Below, in pieces: positions 4,749-15,072 of a stretch of 20,307 nucleotides of DNA. Position numbers and translations under genes: made by a program. The notes under the pieces were generated by a model, which was not told the DNA's origin, made no database searches, and was given only the letters and a program-made list of their open reading frames with translations. The stretch is from a virus, in the IMG/VR virus record IMGVR_UViG_3300032164_003094. One strand, given 5' to 3'. How positions within the stretch are numbered: position 1 is the first letter of the stretch; each line of letters begins with the position of its first letter.

Positions 4749-5357
4749 GTGGACCTGAACTTGGTCACGGCATTAAGCCATGTGAAGATGGCCATGATGG
4801 GCGCAGCTGAAAAGTCCGCGAAGCGCCGGCTTGCCGTGTACTCGAACACCATCACATGCAAAAAAGGGTGTGATGGCTGTTGTTCTCGAATGGTGCACAT
4901 CACCATTGCTGAGGCGGTCGTTATCCAAGAACATGTGCAGAAAACCGGGAAGTGGTCTGAGGTCAGGGCTAGGGCGATCACCATGGCCACGGTCGTAAAA
5001 GTCGCCAACCCCGTTTCATGGTTCAAGATGAACTTCAAATGCCCAATCCTAGACCCGGCAGCCAAGACGTGTCTTGCCTATGAAGTCCGCCCAGCTCCAT
5101 GCTCGGTCCATTTCGTTACGTCCGATCCAAACCTCTGCGACCCGTGGTCGACGTCCGGAGGGGGGTATCAGCCCGTGGAGATGGAGGACGTTTACGAGGA
5201 GTCATCCAGGAAGATAGAGTCGAAGGTCGACGGCCACGGGATCCTGGCATTCAAACTTCCCCTCCCAGTAGCGCTCCTTCTCGCTGAGCGCATTAAGCAC
5301 CGGAAAGGCCTATCTTCTCAAGAGGTCATGTCTTTCATATTCAACGAGTTGAAATGA
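4749..5357 (+). CDS. YkgJ/UPF0153-like putative Fe-S or zinc-chelating protein (C-x3-C-x2-CC motif CKKGCDGCC, with further conserved Cys).
   Basis: CKKGCDGCC followed by C..CPILD and CLAYEVRPAPC resembles the CxxCxxCC putative metal-chelating domain family. GTG start overlaps the previous stop (TAAGTG). The region has lower GC than the rest of the window. Confidence 0.5.
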   Translation: MDLNLVTALSHVKMAMMGAAEKSAKRRLAVYSNTITCKKGCDGCCSRMVHITIAEAVVIQEHVQKTGKWSEVRARAITMATVVKVANPVSWFKMNFKCPILDPAAKTCLAYEVRPAPCSVHFVTSDPNLCDPWSTSGGGYQPVEMEDVYEESSRKIESKVDGHGILAFKLPLPVALLLAERIKHRKGLSSQEVMSFIFNELK

Positions 5358-5590
5358 ACTGTGACTATTGCGGAGAGAAGACGGAGAGGACGGTCGAGGC
5401 GGTCGAGGAGAACGTTCCCGTCTGCCATCGGTGCGCGATCTTGCTCTCGAGCCCGATGACGGGCTCGAGGCTGATCCGAGGCCATATGAACCTGCGGCTT
5501 AGGGAGAAGATGGGGAAACGGCAGCTCGACCTTCTGTTCGAGAAGGCGATGCCCATCTTAGAGTCGATGAAGAGGAAGGACGCTTCCTAG
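5354..5590 (+). CDS. Small zinc-ribbon-like protein, 78 aa (CDYC...CHRC).
   Basis: Two CxxC pairs spaced about 20 aa apart. ATGA start/stop overlap with the upstream gene. Its stop shares a CTAG tetranucleotide with the stop of the convergent sigma factor gene. Confidence 0.5.
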   Translation: MNCDYCGEKTERTVEAVEENVPVCHRCAILLSSPMTGSRLIRGHMNLRLREKMGKRQLDLLFEKAMPILESMKRKDAS

Positions 5591-6276
5591 CTCGCCGCGG
5601 CGAGCATCCGCACTGCGGCCGGAATCCGCTGCTTGATGTCGCGGATGGTCTTCGTGGTGACCTTTCGATCACCGAACGAGAGGGACTCGCGCACGACCTC
5701 GGCGCTCGCGCCGGATCGGACCGCCCGGACATACCGTGCCAAATCCCACTCGCCTTTCATCCGCAGGGCGTGCTCGAAGGACTCCAGCTTTTCGGTGAAC
5801 GCGTCCGGCTCAACCCGCGCGTTCACGTCCTCGACTGTGTCGAGGAGCGAACGGCCGTCGTCCGGGCCCACGGGCGCGTCGATGGAGTCTTTTTCCCGGT
5901 CATACCGGCGCTTCTTGTGGACGAGGTTGACGCACACGTTGTTGGCCACCATGTAGACGTAGTGGCCGAACGAGCTCTTGTTCGGATTGTGCGCGGACCG
6001 CGTGCAGTTTTTGTGGATGATCGCGACGAAGACCTCCTGGATGAGCTCCTCCATCGAGTACCCCTCCACTCGGAAGAACTTGTGTACGATCTTCGTGACG
6101 TCGAGCTTTTTCTCGATGACGTCGATGCCGAGGGGTACGGACGCTACGGCCTTTCCGTTCTCATCCACTTCCGCCTTTGAAAACCTGGGCCAAGGTAGCT
6201 TGTCGGGGATCCTCTTCAAAGGCTTCCCGGGGACTCTGATGATCTTGGCCTGTTGGGCCAGCTTTCCGATTTCCAT
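5587..6276 (-). CDS. Sigma-70 family (ECF-like) RNA polymerase sigma factor, about 229 aa.
   Basis: Region 2-like segment: EELIQEVFVAIIHK...FGHYVYMVANNVCVNLVHKKRRY. Region 4-like HTH: DLARYVRAVRSGASAEVVRESLSFGDRKVTTKTIRDIKQRI. ATG at 6274-6276 preceded by GGAGAG at 6283-6288; the track starts it 2 codons earlier at a GTG. Confidence 0.7.
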   Translation of the reverse strand: MEIGKLAQQAKIIRVPGKPLKRIPDKLPWPRFSKAEVDENGKAVASVPLGIDVIEKKLDVTKIVHKFFRVEGYSMEELIQEVFVAIIHKNCTRSAHNPNKSSFGHYVYMVANNVCVNLVHKKRRYDREKDSIDAPVGPDDGRSLLDTVEDVNARVEPDAFTEKLESFEHALRMKGEWDLARYVRAVRSGASAEVVRESLSFGDRKVTTKTIRDIKQRIPAAVRMLAAAS

Positions 6277-6312
6277 TGCCACCTCTCCAATTAGACTGTC
6301 GACGCCCGCGCG

Positions 6313-6344
6313 TGCAGTATATCCCCCCTAGAGGATATACTGCA
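6313..6344. promoter_or_regulatory. Perfect 12-bp inverted repeat TGCAGTATATCC-N8-GGATATACTGCA in the divergent intergenic region between the sigma factor gene and gene 6396-7016. Candidate operator and back-to-back -10 elements (TATACT on both strands).
   Basis: Directly visible palindrome. TATACT is 5/6 of the -10 consensus and appears in both orientations, roughly 40-55 nt upstream of the two divergent starts. Confidence 0.5.
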
Positions 6345-6395
6345 GTTTAGCACACAGAGGACGATTGGTGCAAGCAATCTCGAACGTAATGTTTT

Positions 6396-7016
6396 ATGGA
6401 GCTTCAGATGTCCCAGGACTTTCTTCGAGAGTGCATGTCCGACCCGGCGCTGGTTCAGGGCCAAGTGCCCATAGACGAGTTCAACAAGGCGTATTGCGTC
6501 AGGTGCGTCCAAAAGGAGTGCGCCAGGGCCGGACTGAACGGGTCCCTGCTCTCCAGACGCGCGGCGACCTGGCATACAAACCTGTTCGAAAAGCCTCCCC
6601 GGGCGGCAGAGGACGATCCGCGCTATCAGTCCATACGGGCAAAGAAGTTCCTCCAGACCTCAAGTGAGGTCGTGGAGCTCCGGAACAACGGGGTGAACTA
6701 CGAAGTGCAGACCAGGGAGATGCCAGAGGCCCTCCGGAAAACCCCGCCGGAGCCGCCGGCCTTTGATCCGCCACCCCCGGCCCCCGTCTGGGCGGAGCCC
6801 GCTCCGCCCGTTCCGGAGCCTGTTGAAGCAGTCCCGGCGCCCGTCCTTGACGTTCCGCCGGTCCCAGAGCCAGCGCCCGTCGCACCACCAGCCCGCCAGT
6901 TTGACGCACCGCCCCAAAACACCCCCTTCGAGCAGGGGACGGTTCTCCCGGGCGGCCCCAGCGAGAAAACGGTAGAAGTAGGAGGCTCCTATGTCTTCGG
7001 ATCTGACGAACAGTAA
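6396..7016 (+). CDS. Hypothetical protein, 206 aa. The N-terminus has Cys pairs (CVRCVQKEC). The C-terminal half is extremely Pro-rich with PxP/PAPV repeats.
   Basis: Long ORF divergent from the sigma factor gene. The Pro-rich tail is PPEPPAFDPPPPAPVWAEPAPPVPEPVEAVPAPVLDVPPVPEPAPVAPP. The start could also be the ATG at 6408. Confidence 0.5.
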   Translation: MELQMSQDFLRECMSDPALVQGQVPIDEFNKAYCVRCVQKECARAGLNGSLLSRRAATWHTNLFEKPPRAAEDDPRYQSIRAKKFLQTSSEVVELRNNGVNYEVQTREMPEALRKTPPEPPAFDPPPPAPVWAEPAPPVPEPVEAVPAPVLDVPPVPEPAPVAPPARQFDAPPQNTPFEQGTVLPGGPSEKTVEVGGSYVFGSDEQ

Positions 7017-8712: not shown

Positions 8713-8967
8713 TCACGGGCAGCCCACCGGAGGGTGCATCGCGGCGTTCAGCTCCGGCTCGACCTCCTGCCAATTCTCCACGTCCGTAAGGGCCTCACCC
8801 CACGTGGGGCTCATGGGAGAGAATACCCCGCACTTGCACTCCAGCCAGCACGATCCCCTCCCGCCGAGCGCCAGTAGCCCAGGCTCGAGGCAAGCCGGAC
8901 AAGGGTGCCTGGCGGCGGTGAAGGCCCTCCGGATCTCCCGGTCCTTCAACATTTCCTCGCGCGTCAT
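8713..8967 (-). CDS. Small Cys-rich protein, about 84 aa (CPAC...CWLECKC).
   Basis: Its ATG at 8965-8967 overlaps the TGA stop of the dCTP deaminase gene (ATGA). It has two Cys clusters. Confidence 0.4.
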   Translation of the reverse strand: MTREEMLKDREIRRAFTAARHPCPACLEPGLLALGGRGSCWLECKCGVFSPMSPTWGEALTDVENWQEVEPELNAAMHPPVGCP

Positions 8968-9659
8968 TGAAACATCTTCCACGACTGTGACGGGATTGGG
9001 CCCATCGCGAGATCGCCCTTATAACTACCCTTGGACTGGTAGCTGTCGACCTCTCCGACGAGCGTGTGGAATCGCATCTGGCAGAACCTCATACCCGGGT
9101 AGACGATGAGCGGGTGCAGAACCGCCACCTCGAGCGTGTACTGGCCGTCGAACCCCGGGTCGCCATATCCGGCCGTAACGTGGACGAAGCAGAAGAGACG
9201 GCCTATTGAGGACTTCCCGTCTATGATGGGGACGAATTTGTCCGTCGCCACGCGCTCCTCAGTGTGCATCAGGTAGCCGATCCCGGGCAGGAGAACGAGG
9301 CCCCGGTCGTCCATCTCGTACCTGGCCACCCGGTTCTCCCTGGCGGAGTCAAGACAGTTCTGGCCGGCCTTCGCCGCTATCTTCTCGCCGGGGGCATATT
9401 TCGGGCGGAGCCTCTCCCCCGGGACGCCGAAGGAGCCGTCGTCCCGCATCCCGTCGCACTCCCAGTCATCATCGCTCCCGGCCTGGACGAGAGCCCTATA
9501 TACGGCGACGTGGCGTCCGAGCGTCAGGTCGTACGAGGCCGGGTTGATCCGGTCCTCGAACCTGGGGTCGCCGGACTCGAACGGGTCTATCCTGATCGTC
9601 CCATCGCGGATGGCGTCGCGAATCTGCTTGCCGGAAAGAATGCCGCCGTTTGGTCCCAT
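8964..9659 (-). CDS. dcd: dCTP deaminase, about 232 aa, with a C-terminal extension of about 40 aa relative to typical enzymes.
   Basis: ILSGKQIRDAIRDGTIRIDPF ... NPASYDLTLG ... GYGDPGFDGQYTLEV are the dCTP deaminase / dUTPase-fold signature motifs. Start taken at ATG 9657-9659 (MGPNGGILSG), not the upstream track start at 9839. Confidence 0.8.
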   Translation of the reverse strand: MGPNGGILSGKQIRDAIRDGTIRIDPFESGDPRFEDRINPASYDLTLGRHVAVYRALVQAGSDDDWECDGMRDDGSFGVPGERLRPKYAPGEKIAAKAGQNCLDSARENRVARYEMDDRGLVLLPGIGYLMHTEERVATDKFVPIIDGKSSIGRLFCFVHVTAGYGDPGFDGQYTLEVAVLHPLIVYPGMRFCQMRFHTLVGEVDSYQSKGSYKGDLAMGPIPSQSWKMFQ

Positions 9660-9683
9660 TAAAGTCTCCAGGTATGATTTTAC

Positions 9684-9968
9684 ATGCCGATGACTGAAGA
9701 AGAAAAGCGGGAGGCCCTCGTCATCGCCGAGTCCATCGGCCCCGTGCAGATCTTCGAGACCCTCCAAGACCTCATCGCCAGGGAAAGGAGCCTTCTGGAG
9801 ACCCCTATGGACCGGGACATGCGGGCCATAACGCTGCACAACCTCGCCGTCCTGACCGCCGCCTGCGCAGGGTATGAGGAGGCGGCGAAAAAGTTCAACG
9901 AGGCTTTATCCAAGGCCAAACAGGCCCGCGATGACGGGGAAGGAACGGGAGTCGACGAGGATCCCTGA
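9684..9968 (+). CDS. Small hypothetical helical protein, 94 aa, with one TPR-like motif.
   Basis: Divergent from the dCTP deaminase gene with only about 24 nt between the starts. Its 3' end overlaps the convergent polymerase gene by about 63 nt. AITLHNLAVLTAACAGYEEAAKKFNEALSKAKQ looks TPR-like. Confidence 0.4.
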   Translation: MPMTEEEKREALVIAESIGPVQIFETLQDLIARERSLLETPMDRDMRAITLHNLAVLTAACAGYEEAAKKFNEALSKAKQARDDGEGTGVDEDP

Positions 9969-12902
9969 CTCCTCGGATATGATGACGTTCCCCTTCGAGT
10001 CGACGACGCGCAGTATGTCGACCCCCTCCGTCAGCACGCACACGGCGTGAAGCTTCTTCTGGTTCCGCTTGGTCATCGGGGACCTCAGCACCCAGCGGAC
10101 GACCTCCCTGTCGCCCGACGGGACTTCCCGCTTCTCCGGCCTGGCCTGGACGCTAGACTTCGGCTCCGAAGAGCCAAATCCGGGGTCCATGGAGTCGGAT
10201 AGGTCAATCTCAACGGGGGCCGGGGCCGGGATTGCCGGCTCGGACGTACCGTTCGCCTCCTTCGACACAGGGAGGGGGACGTCGAAGTCGTCCATTGAAA
10301 AGTCGTTCACTCCGGCTGTTCTCGGTGGCGGCGGTGGCGGCTCTTCCTCCTTCGGCGCCGCTGGCTTCTCTGCTTCGACCCTTGCGGACTCTGGGGTATC
10401 CGTCCTCTCCTCCGCGTTCATGTCAACCGGCCGTCCGACGATCTCAACAGGGTCGGCCCCGGATCCCGTCGTATGAACACGGTCCACCATGGTCTCGACG
10501 ACAACGTCTTTCGCCGGCTCGGTCGGCACCACCTCCTCGGACCTCTCCGGCTTCGGTTCAGACGTCACGGGAACCCTCCGTATCCATTGTTCGAGGAACT
10601 CAGGGACCTTCTGGTATATACGTCCATCCGCGAAGTATTGGTCCTTCTTCAGCTTACCCTTGAACGTGCCGTCCTCGGCGGTATCCTTCGGATTGACGGG
10701 AGCCCCGTCCACCATCGCGAAGTAGTCGAAGCGAGCCTTCCAGTTACAGTCGACCCCAGGCTCCGTGAGCAGTGGGACATCCCACGCGCGGCCGTGGGCC
10801 TTCTGCAGCCTCCAAGGCTCGGTCATCCACTCGTCGAGCTTACGGACGATCTCCATGAGGAACTCTGGCTTGATCTCATAGACGACCTCGTCGTGCACCG
10901 TCAGGACGTAGCGGCACCGGTCCTTCCACCCGAGCGTCCGGAGCTGCTTGTCGACGTAGCACATCGCAAACTTCAGGACGTCGGCCGAAGTCGCCTGAAT
11001 CGTGTAGTTGATCGCGCAGCGTTCGGCCTTCGACCGGATGCCGCGAATCGGAGAGTCGATCGTCGGGATGGGGATCCGACGGCCGAACGCTGTGTAGATG
11101 CACTTATGCTTATGGGCGTACTTCTTTTGGAACTCAACATACCCCATGAGGATGGGAACGTCGTTCCGGAGGTTCTCCATGTGCTTGGAGGCTTCCTCAA
11201 TGGAACAGCCGACGTTCCTCTGGATGGCGCCCGCGCCGCCGCCGTAGATGAACGCGAAGTTGCATCGCTTACCACGGTTACGCTCGTCCTTGTTAATGTC
11301 CTTCTTACCGAAGAGCGTGCGGGCCGTGATGCTATGAACGTCCCCGTCCTCGTAAAGGAATGACTTCGTCCAGATCGGGTCCCCGGAAAGGTTGGTGACG
11401 ACGCGCAGCTCCTCGCCTGCATAGTCGAGCTTCACGAGCATCCACCCCTTCCGCGGGATTATGCAGGTTCGAAGCTGCTTGAATAGGTCCGGCTTATCCT
11501 CGTCCGAATCGCGAGGTATGCCCTGGAAGTTGATTCCGGAATACCCGTCCGCGATCTTTCCAGCCTTCGACGAGAGGCGCGTCGTGTCAGTGCCTATCTG
11601 GCTAAAGTTCGGCCGGACGTCCCCATATTTGTCGACCGCCTTCGACAGCGGGTTCAGGTACGAACCCAACATCTTCTGGTAATGGCGCCATTCCAGGATG
11701 AGTTCGAAGATGCTCTCGCGCTTCAGGCTCCCGTCCTTGTCGGTGATGCCCTCTCGCACAACGGAGAACTTCGCGCCGTACACCTTATGAAGGGACTTCA
11801 GGGCCTCATCCTTGAGGCTATACTGCTTGTCATCCACCGACCCGTCCTCTTCCTCCTCCGAGTCCCCGCCCCCGCCACCACCCTCCTGACCCTCGTTCTC
11901 CGCCGCGAGCATCTCGGCCGTCGGCTTCAGGCGCAGTCCTTCCGAGTCCGTGATGAGGGCCTCGGAAAGCTGCTGGACGGCGCCAATGTTCAACGTAATC
12001 CAACGGCCCGTCTTGCCTGTCTTCCCCTCTATCACCTCGCGGATTGAGTCCCCGACCTTGTGCATCTCGGACGTGCACTCGGTCCGCAAGTGTTCCACAC
12101 GGTCCACGTCCACGTGGACGCGGTTTCGCTCAAGCTCGCGGATGACGTTGCAGAACGACTTTTCCAGATCGTAGATCCTCTGGTCGGAGTCGGAGAGTTT
12201 GGGGTGCAGGACCTCCCTCAGCTTGTACGTGAAGATGCCGTCGGAACAGCCATACGCAAGGCCCTCCTTCGGGTGCAGGACAGCAAAGTTGTACCCCTGC
12301 TTATCCCGCTTCATCTGCTCCATCTTCTCGGGCGTAAAGAGGTCCGAGAGCTCGAGCATCTCCACGTTGAAGTGAATCTTGGAAAGCTGCTTCAGGCCGT
12401 TCGGCATCTGCTTCAGCGGTGAGATGACCTTCGACATGAGGTATGTGTCCTCATACTCGGCGAGTTTCCAGTGGTCTTTCCCGGTGACGGGATAGAGGAA
12501 CTCGCAGTCGAACTTGGCTCCGTGGAACACGACCCTGCAGCCGTTCACAAGGCGGGTGATCTCCTCCCACGCCTCATCCCATGGCAGGTTCCCGGAGTCC
12601 TCCGGATAGTGTCCGACGGGGACGTAGTAGCCGTTATATCCGTCGAACGAGATGCAGAGCCCGGCGACCTTGTCGACCGTCCTCATGCCATGGCGAGTTT
12701 TCTTTCCATCCCCGAAGAACTCGTCCTGGTAGACGCGGTTGTCGAGCCCGGTGGTCTCCAGGTCCAGAGAGCATGTCTTGCGTTGGAGGCAAAGGTCAAC
12801 AAGCTTCTTAAGCCGGTCCACGGAGGTGACGAGGTGGAACTTGTACCCCTGCATCCACTCACGCTGAGTGTCCACCTTGTCGTCCATCTGCTGCAGAAGC
12901 AT
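9906..12902 (-). CDS. Family A (Pol I-like) DNA polymerase, 998 aa. It has an N-terminal 3'-5' proofreading exonuclease and no 5'-3' nuclease domain. An acidic/Gly insert is present, and there is a C-terminal low-complexity extension of about 260 aa.
   Basis: Exo I LDLETTGLD, Exo II HGAKFDCEF, Exo III YGCSDGIFTYKL. Pol motif A LDYAGEELRVV, motif B RNRGKRCNFAFIYGGG, motif C TVHDEVVYE. Confidence 0.9.
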   Translation of the reverse strand: MLLQQMDDKVDTQREWMQGYKFHLVTSVDRLKKLVDLCLQRKTCSLDLETTGLDNRVYQDEFFGDGKKTRHGMRTVDKVAGLCISFDGYNGYYVPVGHYPEDSGNLPWDEAWEEITRLVNGCRVVFHGAKFDCEFLYPVTGKDHWKLAEYEDTYLMSKVISPLKQMPNGLKQLSKIHFNVEMLELSDLFTPEKMEQMKRDKQGYNFAVLHPKEGLAYGCSDGIFTYKLREVLHPKLSDSDQRIYDLEKSFCNVIRELERNRVHVDVDRVEHLRTECTSEMHKVGDSIREVIEGKTGKTGRWITLNIGAVQQLSEALITDSEGLRLKPTAEMLAAENEGQEGGGGGGDSEEEEDGSVDDKQYSLKDEALKSLHKVYGAKFSVVREGITDKDGSLKRESIFELILEWRHYQKMLGSYLNPLSKAVDKYGDVRPNFSQIGTDTTRLSSKAGKIADGYSGINFQGIPRDSDEDKPDLFKQLRTCIIPRKGWMLVKLDYAGEELRVVTNLSGDPIWTKSFLYEDGDVHSITARTLFGKKDINKDERNRGKRCNFAFIYGGGAGAIQRNVGCSIEEASKHMENLRNDVPILMGYVEFQKKYAHKHKCIYTAFGRRIPIPTIDSPIRGIRSKAERCAINYTIQATSADVLKFAMCYVDKQLRTLGWKDRCRYVLTVHDEVVYEIKPEFLMEIVRKLDEWMTEPWRLQKAHGRAWDVPLLTEPGVDCNWKARFDYFAMVDGAPVNPKDTAEDGTFKGKLKKDQYFADGRIYQKVPEFLEQWIRRVPVTSEPKPERSEEVVPTEPAKDVVVETMVDRVHTTGSGADPVEIVGRPVDMNAEERTDTPESARVEAEKPAAPKEEEPPPPPPRTAGVNDFSMDDFDVPLPVSKEANGTSEPAIPAPAPVEIDLSDSMDPGFGSSEPKSSVQARPEKREVPSGDREVVRWVLRSPMTKRNQKKLHAVCVLTEGVDILRVVDSKGNVIISEESGILVDSRSFPVIAGLFGLG

Positions 12903-12916
12903 GGCGAGACCTTACA

Positions 12917-14026
12917 GTGGGTGTACCGTGTAGGACCAGGGAAGCCAAATTGAGCCAGGACCATTACGCTATCTTGGGACTGCCGAGGACGGCGTCCCAA
13001 GAGGACATCAAGAAGGCCTTCCGCAGGCTCGCGGTCGAGCACCATCCGGACAAGGGCGGAAACGCCTCCAGGTTCAAGGAGGTCAACACGGCCCACCAGG
13101 TCCTGACCGACGAGGGAAAGAAAGCGCGATTCGACGCTTATGGGGACGAGAACGCACAGCATCCGCCCCGTCCACCCCCGAGGCGGCCCGGGAACTTCCG
13201 TGTAACGATGGACGACCTGAACTCGGTCTTCAACAACCATTTTGACCCGTTCGGCCCGTTCCACGGCGGGGGAGTCGCGGACTTCGCCAAGAAAGCACGT
13301 CCCGTCCAAGACCCCGGCGACGACATCAGGATCAAGGTCTCCGTTCCGATGGAGGAAGCCTTGGTCGGGACGAAGAAGACGGTCCGATTTGACCGCGGGG
13401 ATGCACAGCTTTGCAGAAAGTGCGCAGGATCCGGGTCTCAGAACGGCAGGCCGCAGGGGATCTGCCTGACGTGCGACGGGAGTGGGAGGACCATAGACAT
13501 GGTGGCCGGCCATCCGGCCGTCCGACAGTGTCGACAATGCCGTGGGTCCGGGAGCTCGAGCGCGGACAGGTGCCAGGACTGCTCCGGGTCGGGAAAGGAG
13601 GCCGTGCAGAGGGAGATCACGGTCACCATCCCGAAAGGACTGCGCAGCGGGCAGGACATGAAGGTCAAAGGGCTCGGCAGGCCGGGGGCACCGCCGGGGG
13701 ACCTGATTTTGACCGTCGAAATCCGGGACTCCGAAAATTGGTGGGCTCGAGGAGAGTCTCTCTTCACAACGGTCGAGGTGGGGATGACGGACCTTCTCCA
13801 CGGCGGAAGCACGACGACGCGCATGCCGGACGGCCGGGAAGTCTCGGTGACCGTCCCCGCCGGGGGAGGCCGGGCGACCGCCCAGGGGGCGTGGAAGAAC
13901 CCCGCAGGGCAGGACGGAGACCTGACGGTCTTGTTCAAGGTGAGGCCGGCCAGGGGGTTCAGCCCGCGCGCGGAGCGCCTGATGCGAGAGCTTCTTGAAG
14001 AGCTTGGGGGTCGGGAACGACAATGA
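12917..14026 (+). CDS. dnaJ: Type I DnaJ (Hsp40) co-chaperone: J domain, linker, four CxxCxGxG zinc-finger repeats, then C-terminal substrate-binding domains.
   Basis: DHYAILGL...HHPDKGG...FKEVNTAHQVL (J domain). CRKCAGSG, CLTCDGSG, CRQCRGSG, CQDCSGSG. Start is GTG 12917, or alternatively TTG 12950 preceded by AGGGAAG. The long minus-strand ORFs over this gene are Arg/Pro/Gly-rich shadows. Confidence 0.85.
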   Translation: MGVPCRTREAKLSQDHYAILGLPRTASQEDIKKAFRRLAVEHHPDKGGNASRFKEVNTAHQVLTDEGKKARFDAYGDENAQHPPRPPPRRPGNFRVTMDDLNSVFNNHFDPFGPFHGGGVADFAKKARPVQDPGDDIRIKVSVPMEEALVGTKKTVRFDRGDAQLCRKCAGSGSQNGRPQGICLTCDGSGRTIDMVAGHPAVRQCRQCRGSGSSSADRCQDCSGSGKEAVQREITVTIPKGLRSGQDMKVKGLGRPGAPPGDLILTVEIRDSENWWARGESLFTTVEVGMTDLLHGGSTTTRMPDGREVSVTVPAGGGRATAQGAWKNPAGQDGDLTVLFKVRPARGFSPRAERLMRELLEELGGRERQ

Positions 14027-14441
14027 CGACCCGTCGCTTCGCAGCCCACGCCAGGACTATCGAGTTCACGACCTCCTGAAGTTCGCCCTCGGACGCGTGC
14101 TCCCAGCAAGGCGGGATGCGGCGCTTCCCCGTGACGTTCTTGGACGTACAAACGTGCCGGTCAGCCATGATGCACGTCCCGACGTGGGCGCACTCCGGGC
14201 GGAGCAGCTTCAGGAGCCCGGCCACCGGGTCCTTCACCGTCCTCCGTAGCTCCACGTCCCACCCCATCTTGGCGGCCTCCACCCCGTCGCGCGACATGAC
14301 GGCGCAGCCCCTCAGGACGTCCCATAGTGGGACGAGGCCCTTCACGGAGGCGAGGGCCGGGATGCGCTCGAAGGCGAACTCGGAGACGTCAATCCTCTCG
14401 CCGGTCTTCAGCGTCAGCGCGTACTCGTCAGGGATGATCAT
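13959..14441 (-). CDS. Hypothetical protein, 160 aa, with scattered Cys/His (CAHVGTC...HVC...CWEH).
   Basis: ATG at 14439-14441 overlaps the end of the upstream zinc-finger gene by 14 nt. Its 3' end overlaps the dnaJ 3' end (convergent). No family recognised. Confidence 0.45.
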   Translation of the reverse strand: MIIPDEYALTLKTGERIDVSEFAFERIPALASVKGLVPLWDVLRGCAVMSRDGVEAAKMGWDVELRRTVKDPVAGLLKLLRPECAHVGTCIMADRHVCTSKNVTGKRRIPPCWEHASEGELQEVVNSIVLAWAAKRRVVIVVPDPQALQEALASGAPRAG

Positions 14442-15072
14442 CGGCTTCGAACGCGAACATGTCGTCCGTGACGAGGGACGCCTCGTCCATCCTCCCCCGC
14501 AGCTTCAGCAGGGCGGACACCATCTCCGGCGTGGACTTCTCCAGCTTGTCGTAGTCGTACGCCACGTGGTCGAGGAGCCGGCAGAACTTCACGTAGTCCG
14601 ACATGGCGCACCTGTCCCGCAGCCGGGCGAGCTTCGTCTCGAGCAGCTTCAGGACGAGCGGGACGTCGGCCCATTTCTCGGACACGTAGCCGGAGCCGCG
14701 GTCGGACAGCTCCTTGAAGTCCGGGACGTCCGGGCGCCTCGGAACCTTGACGTGGTACCGGCGCTCCAGGTCCGTGAGCGCGTCCATGAAGCGGAGCTTT
14801 CGGAACTCCGCGTACAGGTTCAGGCCGTCCCAGTTCTTCTTGCACTTGAAGCACCGGACGTAGGACGGACGGCCGCCCGACCGCGGATAGTAGCGGCCGG
14901 ACGGCTTGTTGTCCGCCCCGTGGAAAGGGCACTTGATCTGCGTCGGCGTCGTCTCGTCCGGGACGTCCGAGATGCCGTTCTCAACCAGGCAGTCGAAGGC
15001 CGAGTAGCGCTCGTGGACCGCGTGGACCCGGCGCTTTATCCACTCCTGGACTGATGTCTTCTCGAGCTCCAT
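14428..15072 (-). CDS. Protein with a primase-type CHC2 zinc finger (CPFHGADNKPSGRYYP...CFKCKKNWDGLNLYAEF), about 214 aa, and no recognisable TOPRIM or catalytic domain.
   Basis: The CPFHG...C.KC...G....Y motif is the DnaG-type zinc-binding domain. Start taken at the ATG at 15070-15072 (MELEKTS...), immediately after the stop of the upstream gene. The track's longer ORF to 15219 would overlap the upstream gene out of frame. Confidence 0.6.
   Translation of the reverse strand: MELEKTSVQEWIKRRVHAVHERYSAFDCLVENGISDVPDETTPTQIKCPFHGADNKPSGRYYPRSGGRPSYVRCFKCKKNWDGLNLYAEFRKLRFMDALTDLERRYHVKVPRRPDVPDFKELSDRGSGYVSEKWADVPLVLKLLETKLARLRDRCAMSDYVKFCRLLDHVAYDYDKLEKSTPEMVSALLKLRGRMDEASLVTDDMFAFEADDHP

Follow-up and report, generated by a model that had tools for sequence, protein, structure and literature searches.

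A Family A Polymerase That Continues Past Its Canonical End

We analyzed a 20,307-nucleotide stretch of viral DNA (IMG/VR record IMGVR_UViG_3300032164_003094; hereafter the window), which carries a complete open reading frame (ORF) for a family A DNA polymerase with a 3'-5' exonuclease and a long C-terminal appendage (Table 1). This appendage, a flexible tether closing in a small folded domain, is a new, lineage-wide accessory module on a family A replicase, and its architecture is solid. The DNA_pol_A profile (PF00476) scores 221.9 bits, above the curated Pfam cutoff of 34.3, which places the enzyme in family A; DNA_pol_A_exo1 scores 27 bits, PHROG 17 matches residues 14-729 (E 5.6e-98), and Taq and Klenow polymerases are matched in the PDB with E values of 1e-34 to 1e-32. 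Motifs A, B, and C read DYAGEELR, RGKRCNFAFIYG, and VHDEVV. In the alignment of 116-120 homologs from which conservation was calculated, D493, E498, K545, Y553, H670, D671, and E672 are invariant in 116 sequences, as are the exonuclease residues D47, E49, D132, Y217, and D221; from these intact motifs the enzyme is predicted to be an active, proofreading replicase. The Pfam domain ends at residue 722, which PDB alignments pair with residue 602 of the 605-residue Klenow chain; the canonical enzyme therefore stops at about this point, and 276 more residues follow in the same frame.

A first-pass annotation of the sequence had raised the concern that an undetected frameshift fused the tail to the polymerase. 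The G+C content at third codon positions (GC3) is 0.70-0.95 in the frame of the ORF across the entire tail and falls past the stop codon, and the poly-Pro tract is written in mixed codons, without a homopolymer run. At least two ENA samples contributed the three contigs that encode exactly this 998-residue protein. Among 5.8 billion proteins searched, 366 relatives were retrieved at E <1e-10; the 120 homologs listed are 821-1037 residues long, mostly with ~100% coverage, and more than 100 homologs, 55-84% identical and carried on viral contigs of 0.13-0.44 Mb, share the layout of the tail. Because the identical protein recurs on independent contigs and the architecture is family-wide, the tail is real, belongs to the polymerase in one continuous frame, and is no frameshift artefact. 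The alternative of a separate gene joined by a sequencing or assembly frameshift would draw on nothing beyond the unusual length and low-complexity sequence, and it would have to account for the same fusion throughout the homologs, an unbroken codon-position signature, and a terminal domain that is found at polymerase ends and never stands alone; we give it a negligible probability. A slippery homopolymer in the poly-Pro tract, considered separately as a tau/gamma-like truncation site, was rejected, the codons there being mixed.

Table 1. Features of the polymerase gene and of two neighboring genes in the window
Feature	Residues	Position	Strand	Description
Family A DNA polymerase with 3'-5' exonuclease and C-terminal appendage	1-998	9906..12902	-	Complete ORF, 998 residues; stop codon 9906-9908
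3'-5' exonuclease domain	80-236	12195..12665	-	Pfam PF01612; Exo residues invariant
Acidic Gly/Glu loop GQEGGGGGGDSEEEEDG	338-354	11841..11891	-	Disordered, 17 residues
Polymerase domain per Pfam	395-722	10737..11720	-	Motifs A 493-500, B 543-554, C 669-674; catalytic columns invariant
Proximal extension past canonical C-terminus	723-785	10548..10736	-	Conserved, predicted folded
Acidic Pro-rich disordered linker	786-930	10113..10547	-	pLDDT <50; conservation 0.05-0.3; 35-89% gaps
Acidic-hydrophobic linear motif NDFSMDDFDVPLP	866-878	10269..10307	-	Core [DES]-Phi-x-Phi-[DTSP]
Second short motif MDPGFGSS	905-912	10167..10190	-	Phi-G-Phi-G type; subset feature, uncertain meaning
C-terminal globular domain	931-998	9909..10112	-	68 residues; beta-alpha-beta-beta-beta-alpha; ends LFGLG-COOH
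CHC2 zinc-ribbon protein		14428..15072	-	214 residues, no TOPRIM; PF01807; TIGR01391 N-terminal part only
Major-vault-protein-like gene		16808..19486	-	Pfam MVP_shoulder 102 bits; between g19507 and g16250

Anatomy of the Tail

To resolve the tail into parts, we combined the homolog alignment with an AlphaFold2 model of the entire protein (mean predicted local distance difference test score, pLDDT, 84.4). The proximal extension has a column conservation of 0.6-0.7 identity with nearly no gaps, and it is modeled at pLDDT 92-97 as two small beta-hairpins. The terminal domain is conserved at 0.55-0.65 without gaps and is likewise modeled at pLDDT 92-97 in the full-length protein; modeled alone, it reaches 92.9. 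Between them lies the linker, which in the window is 145 residues long (Pro 16%, Asp+Glu 22%, net charge -18, pI 4.25) and across the family ranges over 72-197 residues, with 17% Pro, 12% Glu, and a net charge of -4 to -26 (median -13). The terminal domain is slightly basic, with a net charge of +2.

These boundaries refine the first-pass annotation, which had described a disordered tail of roughly 260 residues ending in a small domain, at 9906-10700 (residues 735-998). A long C-terminal tail stands, at 276 residues; its disorder and low complexity occupy only ~145 of them (786-930). The tether does close in a genuine conserved globular module, as the combination of modeled disorder and a confident end domain indicates, and this arrangement suits the protein-docking role that had been suggested. 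The strings quoted at the time are all present, namely GQEGGGGGGDSEEEEDG (338-354), EEEPPPPPPR (852-861), PAIPAPAPVEIDL (889-901), and VVRWVLRSPMTK... from residue 934.

Within the linker, the core of the acidic-hydrophobic motif occurs in 92 of 116 sequences vs. 27 +/- 4.5 in shuffled linkers, and a second copy-like stretch, VEIDLSDSMD, lies at residues 897-906. The Phi-G-Phi-G motif is found in 17 of 116 linkers (2.5 +/- 1.6 in shuffles), ~13 residues past the first motif. In some homologs (P0033, P0124, P0149, and the L006 polymerase), a CxxC…C..GH zinc-ribbon-like insert sits inside the disordered linker.

The acidic poly-Gly/Glu insert noted earlier within the polymerase is also real. Its pLDDT is below 50 at residues 341-352, and its acidic character is kept across the family, where the consensus is poly-Asp with some gaps. 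It lies ~45-60 residues ahead of the point aligning with Klenow-chain residue 300, a position that would place it in the thumb region.

The Terminal Domain Is Confined to One Polymerase Lineage

A profile of the terminal domain retrieved 34 proteins among 1.84 billion representatives, and all but one are C-termini of this polymerase family; the sole exception is a repeat protein matched only through a hairpin. No other domain architecture was found among those representatives. When the window was searched in six frames with a clade hidden Markov model (HMM), only the polymerase was recovered, and a broader HMM matched the polymerase C-terminus in 55 loci and nothing besides polymerase C-termini in the 221 loci searched (3.27 Mb), 79 of them cellular Pol I loci. 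A broad-profile search of the 5.8-billion protein set added one known fragment only. The domain is thus exclusive to these polymerases. The idea that it serves as a shared targeting signal on other genes was rejected, there being no second copy in the window or the 221 loci. Neither the tail nor the domain matches any Pfam or PHROGs family; sequence searches of the PDB with two domain profiles returned chance matches only (NHL repeats, ribosomal S10/S20, Smr), and Foldseek against the PDB and BFVD gave nothing significant (all E >=0.27).

The broad HMM was built from two tiers of sequences, the window's own clade (tier A) and more distant huge-phage polymerases (tier B), which are 27-35% identical and continue for 180-280 residues past motif C. 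The proximal extension is common to tier B, whose matches reach residue ~771-775, and matches to cellular Pol I end at 707-733. The end domain of tier B aligns column for column with the terminal domain of the window. The linkers of the two tiers differ, those of tier A being acidic, with the linear motif in 13 of 15 loci, and those of tier B being shorter and neutral (median 59 residues, Pro 21%), with the acidic motif in 0 of 31. R936 and R965 of the terminal domain are invariant in tier A and absent from tier B. Because tier B keeps the domain though its linkers differ, the design that is conserved joins a polymerase through a flexible tether to a terminal domain, and the acidity and the motif appear from the sequence comparison to be later additions in the window's clade, alongside R936 and R965. 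As a sequence marker, the terminal domain could help to recognize this phage lineage.

In a third tier (L054-L081, ~30% identity), the tail is shorter and ends in a ~45-residue beta-alpha-beta-beta module (…PTFxVxELTEExAxxLAxWIK…YDVVYxGRxIxxL). This module may be a reduced relative of the terminal domain, with an hhalign P of 0.011 over 22 columns only.

The tier comparison bears on a model in which the terminal domain binds the acidic linker motif of another polymerase molecule, producing dimers or multivalent clusters with no separate organiser. Multivalent assemblies are typically built from just such a pairing, of a folded domain with a linear motif set in a long disordered region, and the tier A linkers, acidic and motif-bearing, go together with the invariant R936 and R965, whereas tier B has none of these features; were the model true, it could underlie leading/lagging coupling or a replication condensate. 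The correlation spans two clades only, however, and shared ancestry explains it equally well, while the presence of the domain in tier B makes it older than the motif, so that self-binding cannot have been its original role. We regard self-association as quite improbable.

A role within the polymerase itself, in which the domain or the extension folds back on the enzyme or DNA and raises processivity or strand displacement, has some appeal, since residues 723-785 are a conserved, predicted folded element continuous with the polymerase. The T5 polymerase offers a parallel, a family A enzyme with a unique C-terminal extension that affects processivity. Yet a disordered linker of 70-200 residues and variable length is ill-suited to a fixed dock, the domain is modeled with equal pLDDT alone and in the full-length protein, giving no predicted sign of docking, and it is only slightly basic. 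Furthermore, tblastn of the tail against 50,697 GenBank phage records, among which we take T5 to be included, gave no match at E up to 1. Such an intramolecular function seems to us improbable.

Probable Resemblance to the C-Terminal Domain of Pol III Alpha

Structure searching matched the terminal domain to the alpha subunit of bacterial DNA polymerase III, although the tool did not report which part of alpha was aligned. PolC, PHP proteins, Pol-beta-type nucleotidyltransferases, and OB-fold proteins are all missing from the top 60 structure matches. Because these shared-domain proteins would otherwise be expected, a match in an alpha-specific region is favored, and we infer that this region is the tau-binding domain. 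That domain (residues 1079-1160 in Escherichia coli) binds the unstructured C-terminus of tau and thereby holds the polymerase on the clamp-loader/helicase hub (PMC4703070; PMC3919608). Like the phage domain, it occupies the very C-terminal end of a replicative polymerase. The E. coli alpha tail presents its elements in the same order, and conserved positions correspond: a Gly ahead of strand 2, a strand reading RV[DST]P, and a last helix that closes with L-Phi-G.

We compared the two domains by profile-profile alignment, with alpha sequences from enterobacteria and actinobacteria. A semi-global alignment gave a trivial result and was replaced by a forced global alignment, in which the 66-residue phage domain and the 67-residue alpha domain scored 3.3-4.2 standard deviations above the level of 1000 column shuffles. 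The observed score was reached by 0-4 of the 1000 shuffles, and a reversed profile performed at shuffle level. The best local alignment from hhalign falls in the same register.

Several results weigh against the relationship. The hhalign probabilities (P 0.065 and 0.19) are nonsignificant, as is every sequence-level comparison of the phage domain with alpha. Even with an E limit of 10, PF20914 (DNA_pol_IIIA_C) recovers no match among six phage domains, whereas it finds the E. coli domain at 1.4e-30. The phage-domain profile misses alpha among PDB sequences, and Foldseek against the PDB misses it as well. The shuffle test was run on domain boundaries of our own choosing and partly rewards a shared order of secondary structure. 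As a calibration, a profile of the E. coli and Mycobacterium tuberculosis alpha domains also misses the alpha domain of Thermus, and DnaE proteins show little conservation in their tau-binding domain (PMC3919608); the missing sequence signal therefore weighs little in either direction. Taken together, a link of the terminal domain to Pol III alpha, which goes beyond anything the first-pass annotation anticipated, is probable.

Alignment with alpha also speaks to a different proposal, that the C-terminus …AGLFGLG-COOH is a sliding-clamp-binding motif that would tether the polymerase, for processivity, to the clamp of the host or of the phage. Motifs of this kind are frequent at polymerase C-termini, examples being QLVLGL at the end of Pol IV and QVELEF in Pol III alpha, and the phage sequence has a hydrophobic terminus at the very end of the polymerase, with F995 nearly invariant and G996 invariant. 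It nevertheless lacks a conserved Gln, and its spacing is unlike QL[SD]LF or QLxLxL (cited clamp-binding motifs are QLDLF and QLSLPL; PMC4703070). The residues sit in the predicted last helix (H987-994, pLDDT >90) rather than in a free peptide, and tier B ends otherwise (…NL plus variable extras). Aligned to E. coli alpha, the phage protein ends at the L-I-G end of the helix, just before the clamp motif of alpha. The clamp consensus is thus not found here in an accessible, unstructured terminus, and we consider a clamp peptide a long shot.

A Proposed Replisome-Docking Role

We propose that the tail is a lineage-wide, tethered replisome-docking module of the phage replicative polymerase, a reading that we place a little short of an even call. 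By analogy with alpha, the domain would bind a protein and hold the polymerase at the fork by docking on a replisome organiser. On the host side, the candidate is tau (DnaX), a clamp-loader subunit, through its C-terminal region. Phage-encoded candidates are the DnaB-family helicase, whose gene lies just outside the window on its upstream side, the 214-residue CHC2 zinc-ribbon protein as a primase subunit, and other conserved neighbor genes. The flexible linker would give reach, allowing the catalytic body to cycle on and off primer ends while staying at the fork, and the linear motif of tier A may provide a second, weaker contact. Binding of host DnaX by SPP1 gp40 sets a precedent for a phage replisome protein on that hub (PMC6316719).

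A stronger form of the docking proposal, which we rate as unlikely, is that a family A phage polymerase gained, by capture or convergence, the tau-binding tail domain of a family C replicase and takes the seat of alpha on the host clamp-loader/helicase hub. If so, the replisome would be a phage-host chimera, and the phage enzyme might in addition displace the host polymerase; in the clade of the window, the acidic motif would add a second contact or polymerase self-association. Should the domain prove the counterpart of the tau-binding domain of alpha, a module for replisome coupling would have moved between polymerase families that are unrelated, and this would point to a simple means by which a phage could connect its polymerase to the clamp loader of the host. 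We found no phage polymerase with a tau-binding-like domain in the literature, and no description of the tail there or in a comparative survey of jumbo-phage replication systems (PMC7824862).

How phage family A polymerases are retained at the fork is well understood mainly for T7, rather than for the huge phages that are common in environmental metagenomes. A conserved, polymerase-exclusive domain on a disordered tether, present in more than 100 proteins, offers a handle on the organization of their replisome.

Phage Lineage and Genomic Context

The related loci lie on IMG/VR viral contigs of 130-436 kb, and the source lineage consists of uncultivated huge phages. In GenBank, the closest phage record reaches only 34% identity in the polymerase core, and LR745208.1, the nearest GenBank huge phage, lacks the terminal domain. 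A close relative occurs on a 13.8-kb contig (mis-binned) that was binned with a Methylobacter metagenome-assembled genome, a weak hint at the host.

Some related polymerase ORFs are much longer (1353-1763 residues), with large insertions between conserved blocks: L083 19917-25205 (LR745208.1), with three such insertion gaps, L056/L064 9926-13984, and L076 9821-14005. By their sequence, these insertions look like inteins.

The CHC2 protein, which the first-pass annotation had named as a possible partner of the tail, indeed lacks TOPRIM, with TIGR01391 matching its N-terminal part only, and this suggests that it is part of a split primase with the catalytic part elsewhere. Synteny of its gene with the polymerase holds in tiers A and B and in LR745208.1, an arrangement equally predicted by shared ancestry. 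Divergent from the polymerase, 12917-14026 (+) encodes a complete DnaJ of type I, with J, zinc-finger, and C-terminal domains; its position is kept in all tier A loci. Also syntenic with the polymerase across tier A are a sigma-70 region 2 protein at 5587-6282 (-), a CxxCxxCC protein at 4749-5357 (+), and a dCTP-deaminase-like gene at 8964-9839 (-). The replication module extends upstream of the window on the same contig (L222 1-2471), where it includes a SNF2-family helicase, a 288-residue ORF without a family match, and the 508-residue DnaB-family helicase, the first ~190 residues of which have no assignment. In L001, a TnpB/Cas12f-like gene (19566-21239, -; PF07282, weak match) is inserted in an otherwise syntenic region.

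The window also encodes, 4 kb from the polymerase, a homolog of major vault protein (MVP), and the first-pass annotation had suggested the vault-like shell as a partner. The terminal domain would then anchor the polymerase in or on that shell, much as PARP4, which interacts with MVP through its C-terminal portion, is anchored in eukaryotic vaults. The MVP gene does belong to the same replication module in the window, L001/L002, and L222, and PARP4 is likewise an enzyme followed by a linker and a C-terminal vault-binding domain (PMC12280208). However, MVP is absent from the syntenic site (5627-6411) in L003, the closest relative, whose polymerase is 84% identical, and none is present in the 10-kb flanks of 18 other tail-bearing loci (L004-L021). 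MVP homologs of 34-57% identity are found on 49 IMG/VR contigs (L093-L141) of up to 482 kb, and none of the 15 large tail-bearing viral contigs is among them. The gene is thus an insertion or deletion between close relatives, and the tail and the shell gene do not co-occur obligately; nor was any structural match of the terminal domain to vault components found. Because the closest relative is missing MVP, we disfavor the vault anchor and consider it very improbable. Phage MVPs themselves have already been reported in a preprint (bioRxiv 10.1101/2023.11.10.566534).

Adjoining MVP, a gene for 166 residues at 16250-16750 (-) shows a weak macrodomain-type match (DarG ADP-ribosyl glycohydrolase, NF048014, E 5.9e-6); this gene is kept in L003, which lacks MVP.

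Comparison with Known Systems

The proposed docking module differs from the tau-binding domain of alpha in several respects. Alpha (DnaE1, PF20914) is a family C polymerase, whereas the phage enzyme belongs to family A; the domain of alpha follows rigidly after the OB domain, whereas that of the phage is carried on a disordered linker of 70-200 residues. In E. coli alpha the domain is followed by a clamp motif that is missing from the phage protein, and the two domains share no significant sequence similarity. PARP4 follows the same logic of an enzyme, a linker, and a C-terminal targeting domain, and an MVP homolog lies near the phage polymerase, but close relatives can retain the tail and do without MVP.

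Among phage replicases, T7 gp5 is likewise a family A polymerase that makes its replisome contacts via an added flexible element. T7 gp5 has a thioredoxin-binding loop and contacts the acidic C-terminal tails of gp4 and gp2.5, and such acidic tails, which include hydrophobic residues, serve in T7 to connect the polymerase with the helicase and with SSB (single-stranded-DNA-binding protein). Here, unlike in T7, it is the polymerase that bears the acidic tail, and a folded domain closes that tail. The insert at residues 338-354 is a 17-residue disordered acidic Gly/Glu loop (pLDDT <50, poly-Asp consensus), rather than a structured thumb-tip insertion like the ~70-residue thioredoxin-binding domain of gp5, and no similarity to T7 was detected, phage matches spanning the polymerase core only. 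The T5 polymerase is also a family A enzyme that continues past the canonical C-terminus, with an extension of ~70 residues that has neither a long disordered tether nor a terminal globular domain.

SPP1 gp40 is a phage replisome helicase that sits on the host clamp-loader hub and also binds DnaG, and the phages described here too encode a DnaB-family helicase. In SPP1, the helicase recruits the host polymerase, whereas here it is the phage's own polymerase that bears the putative docking domain.

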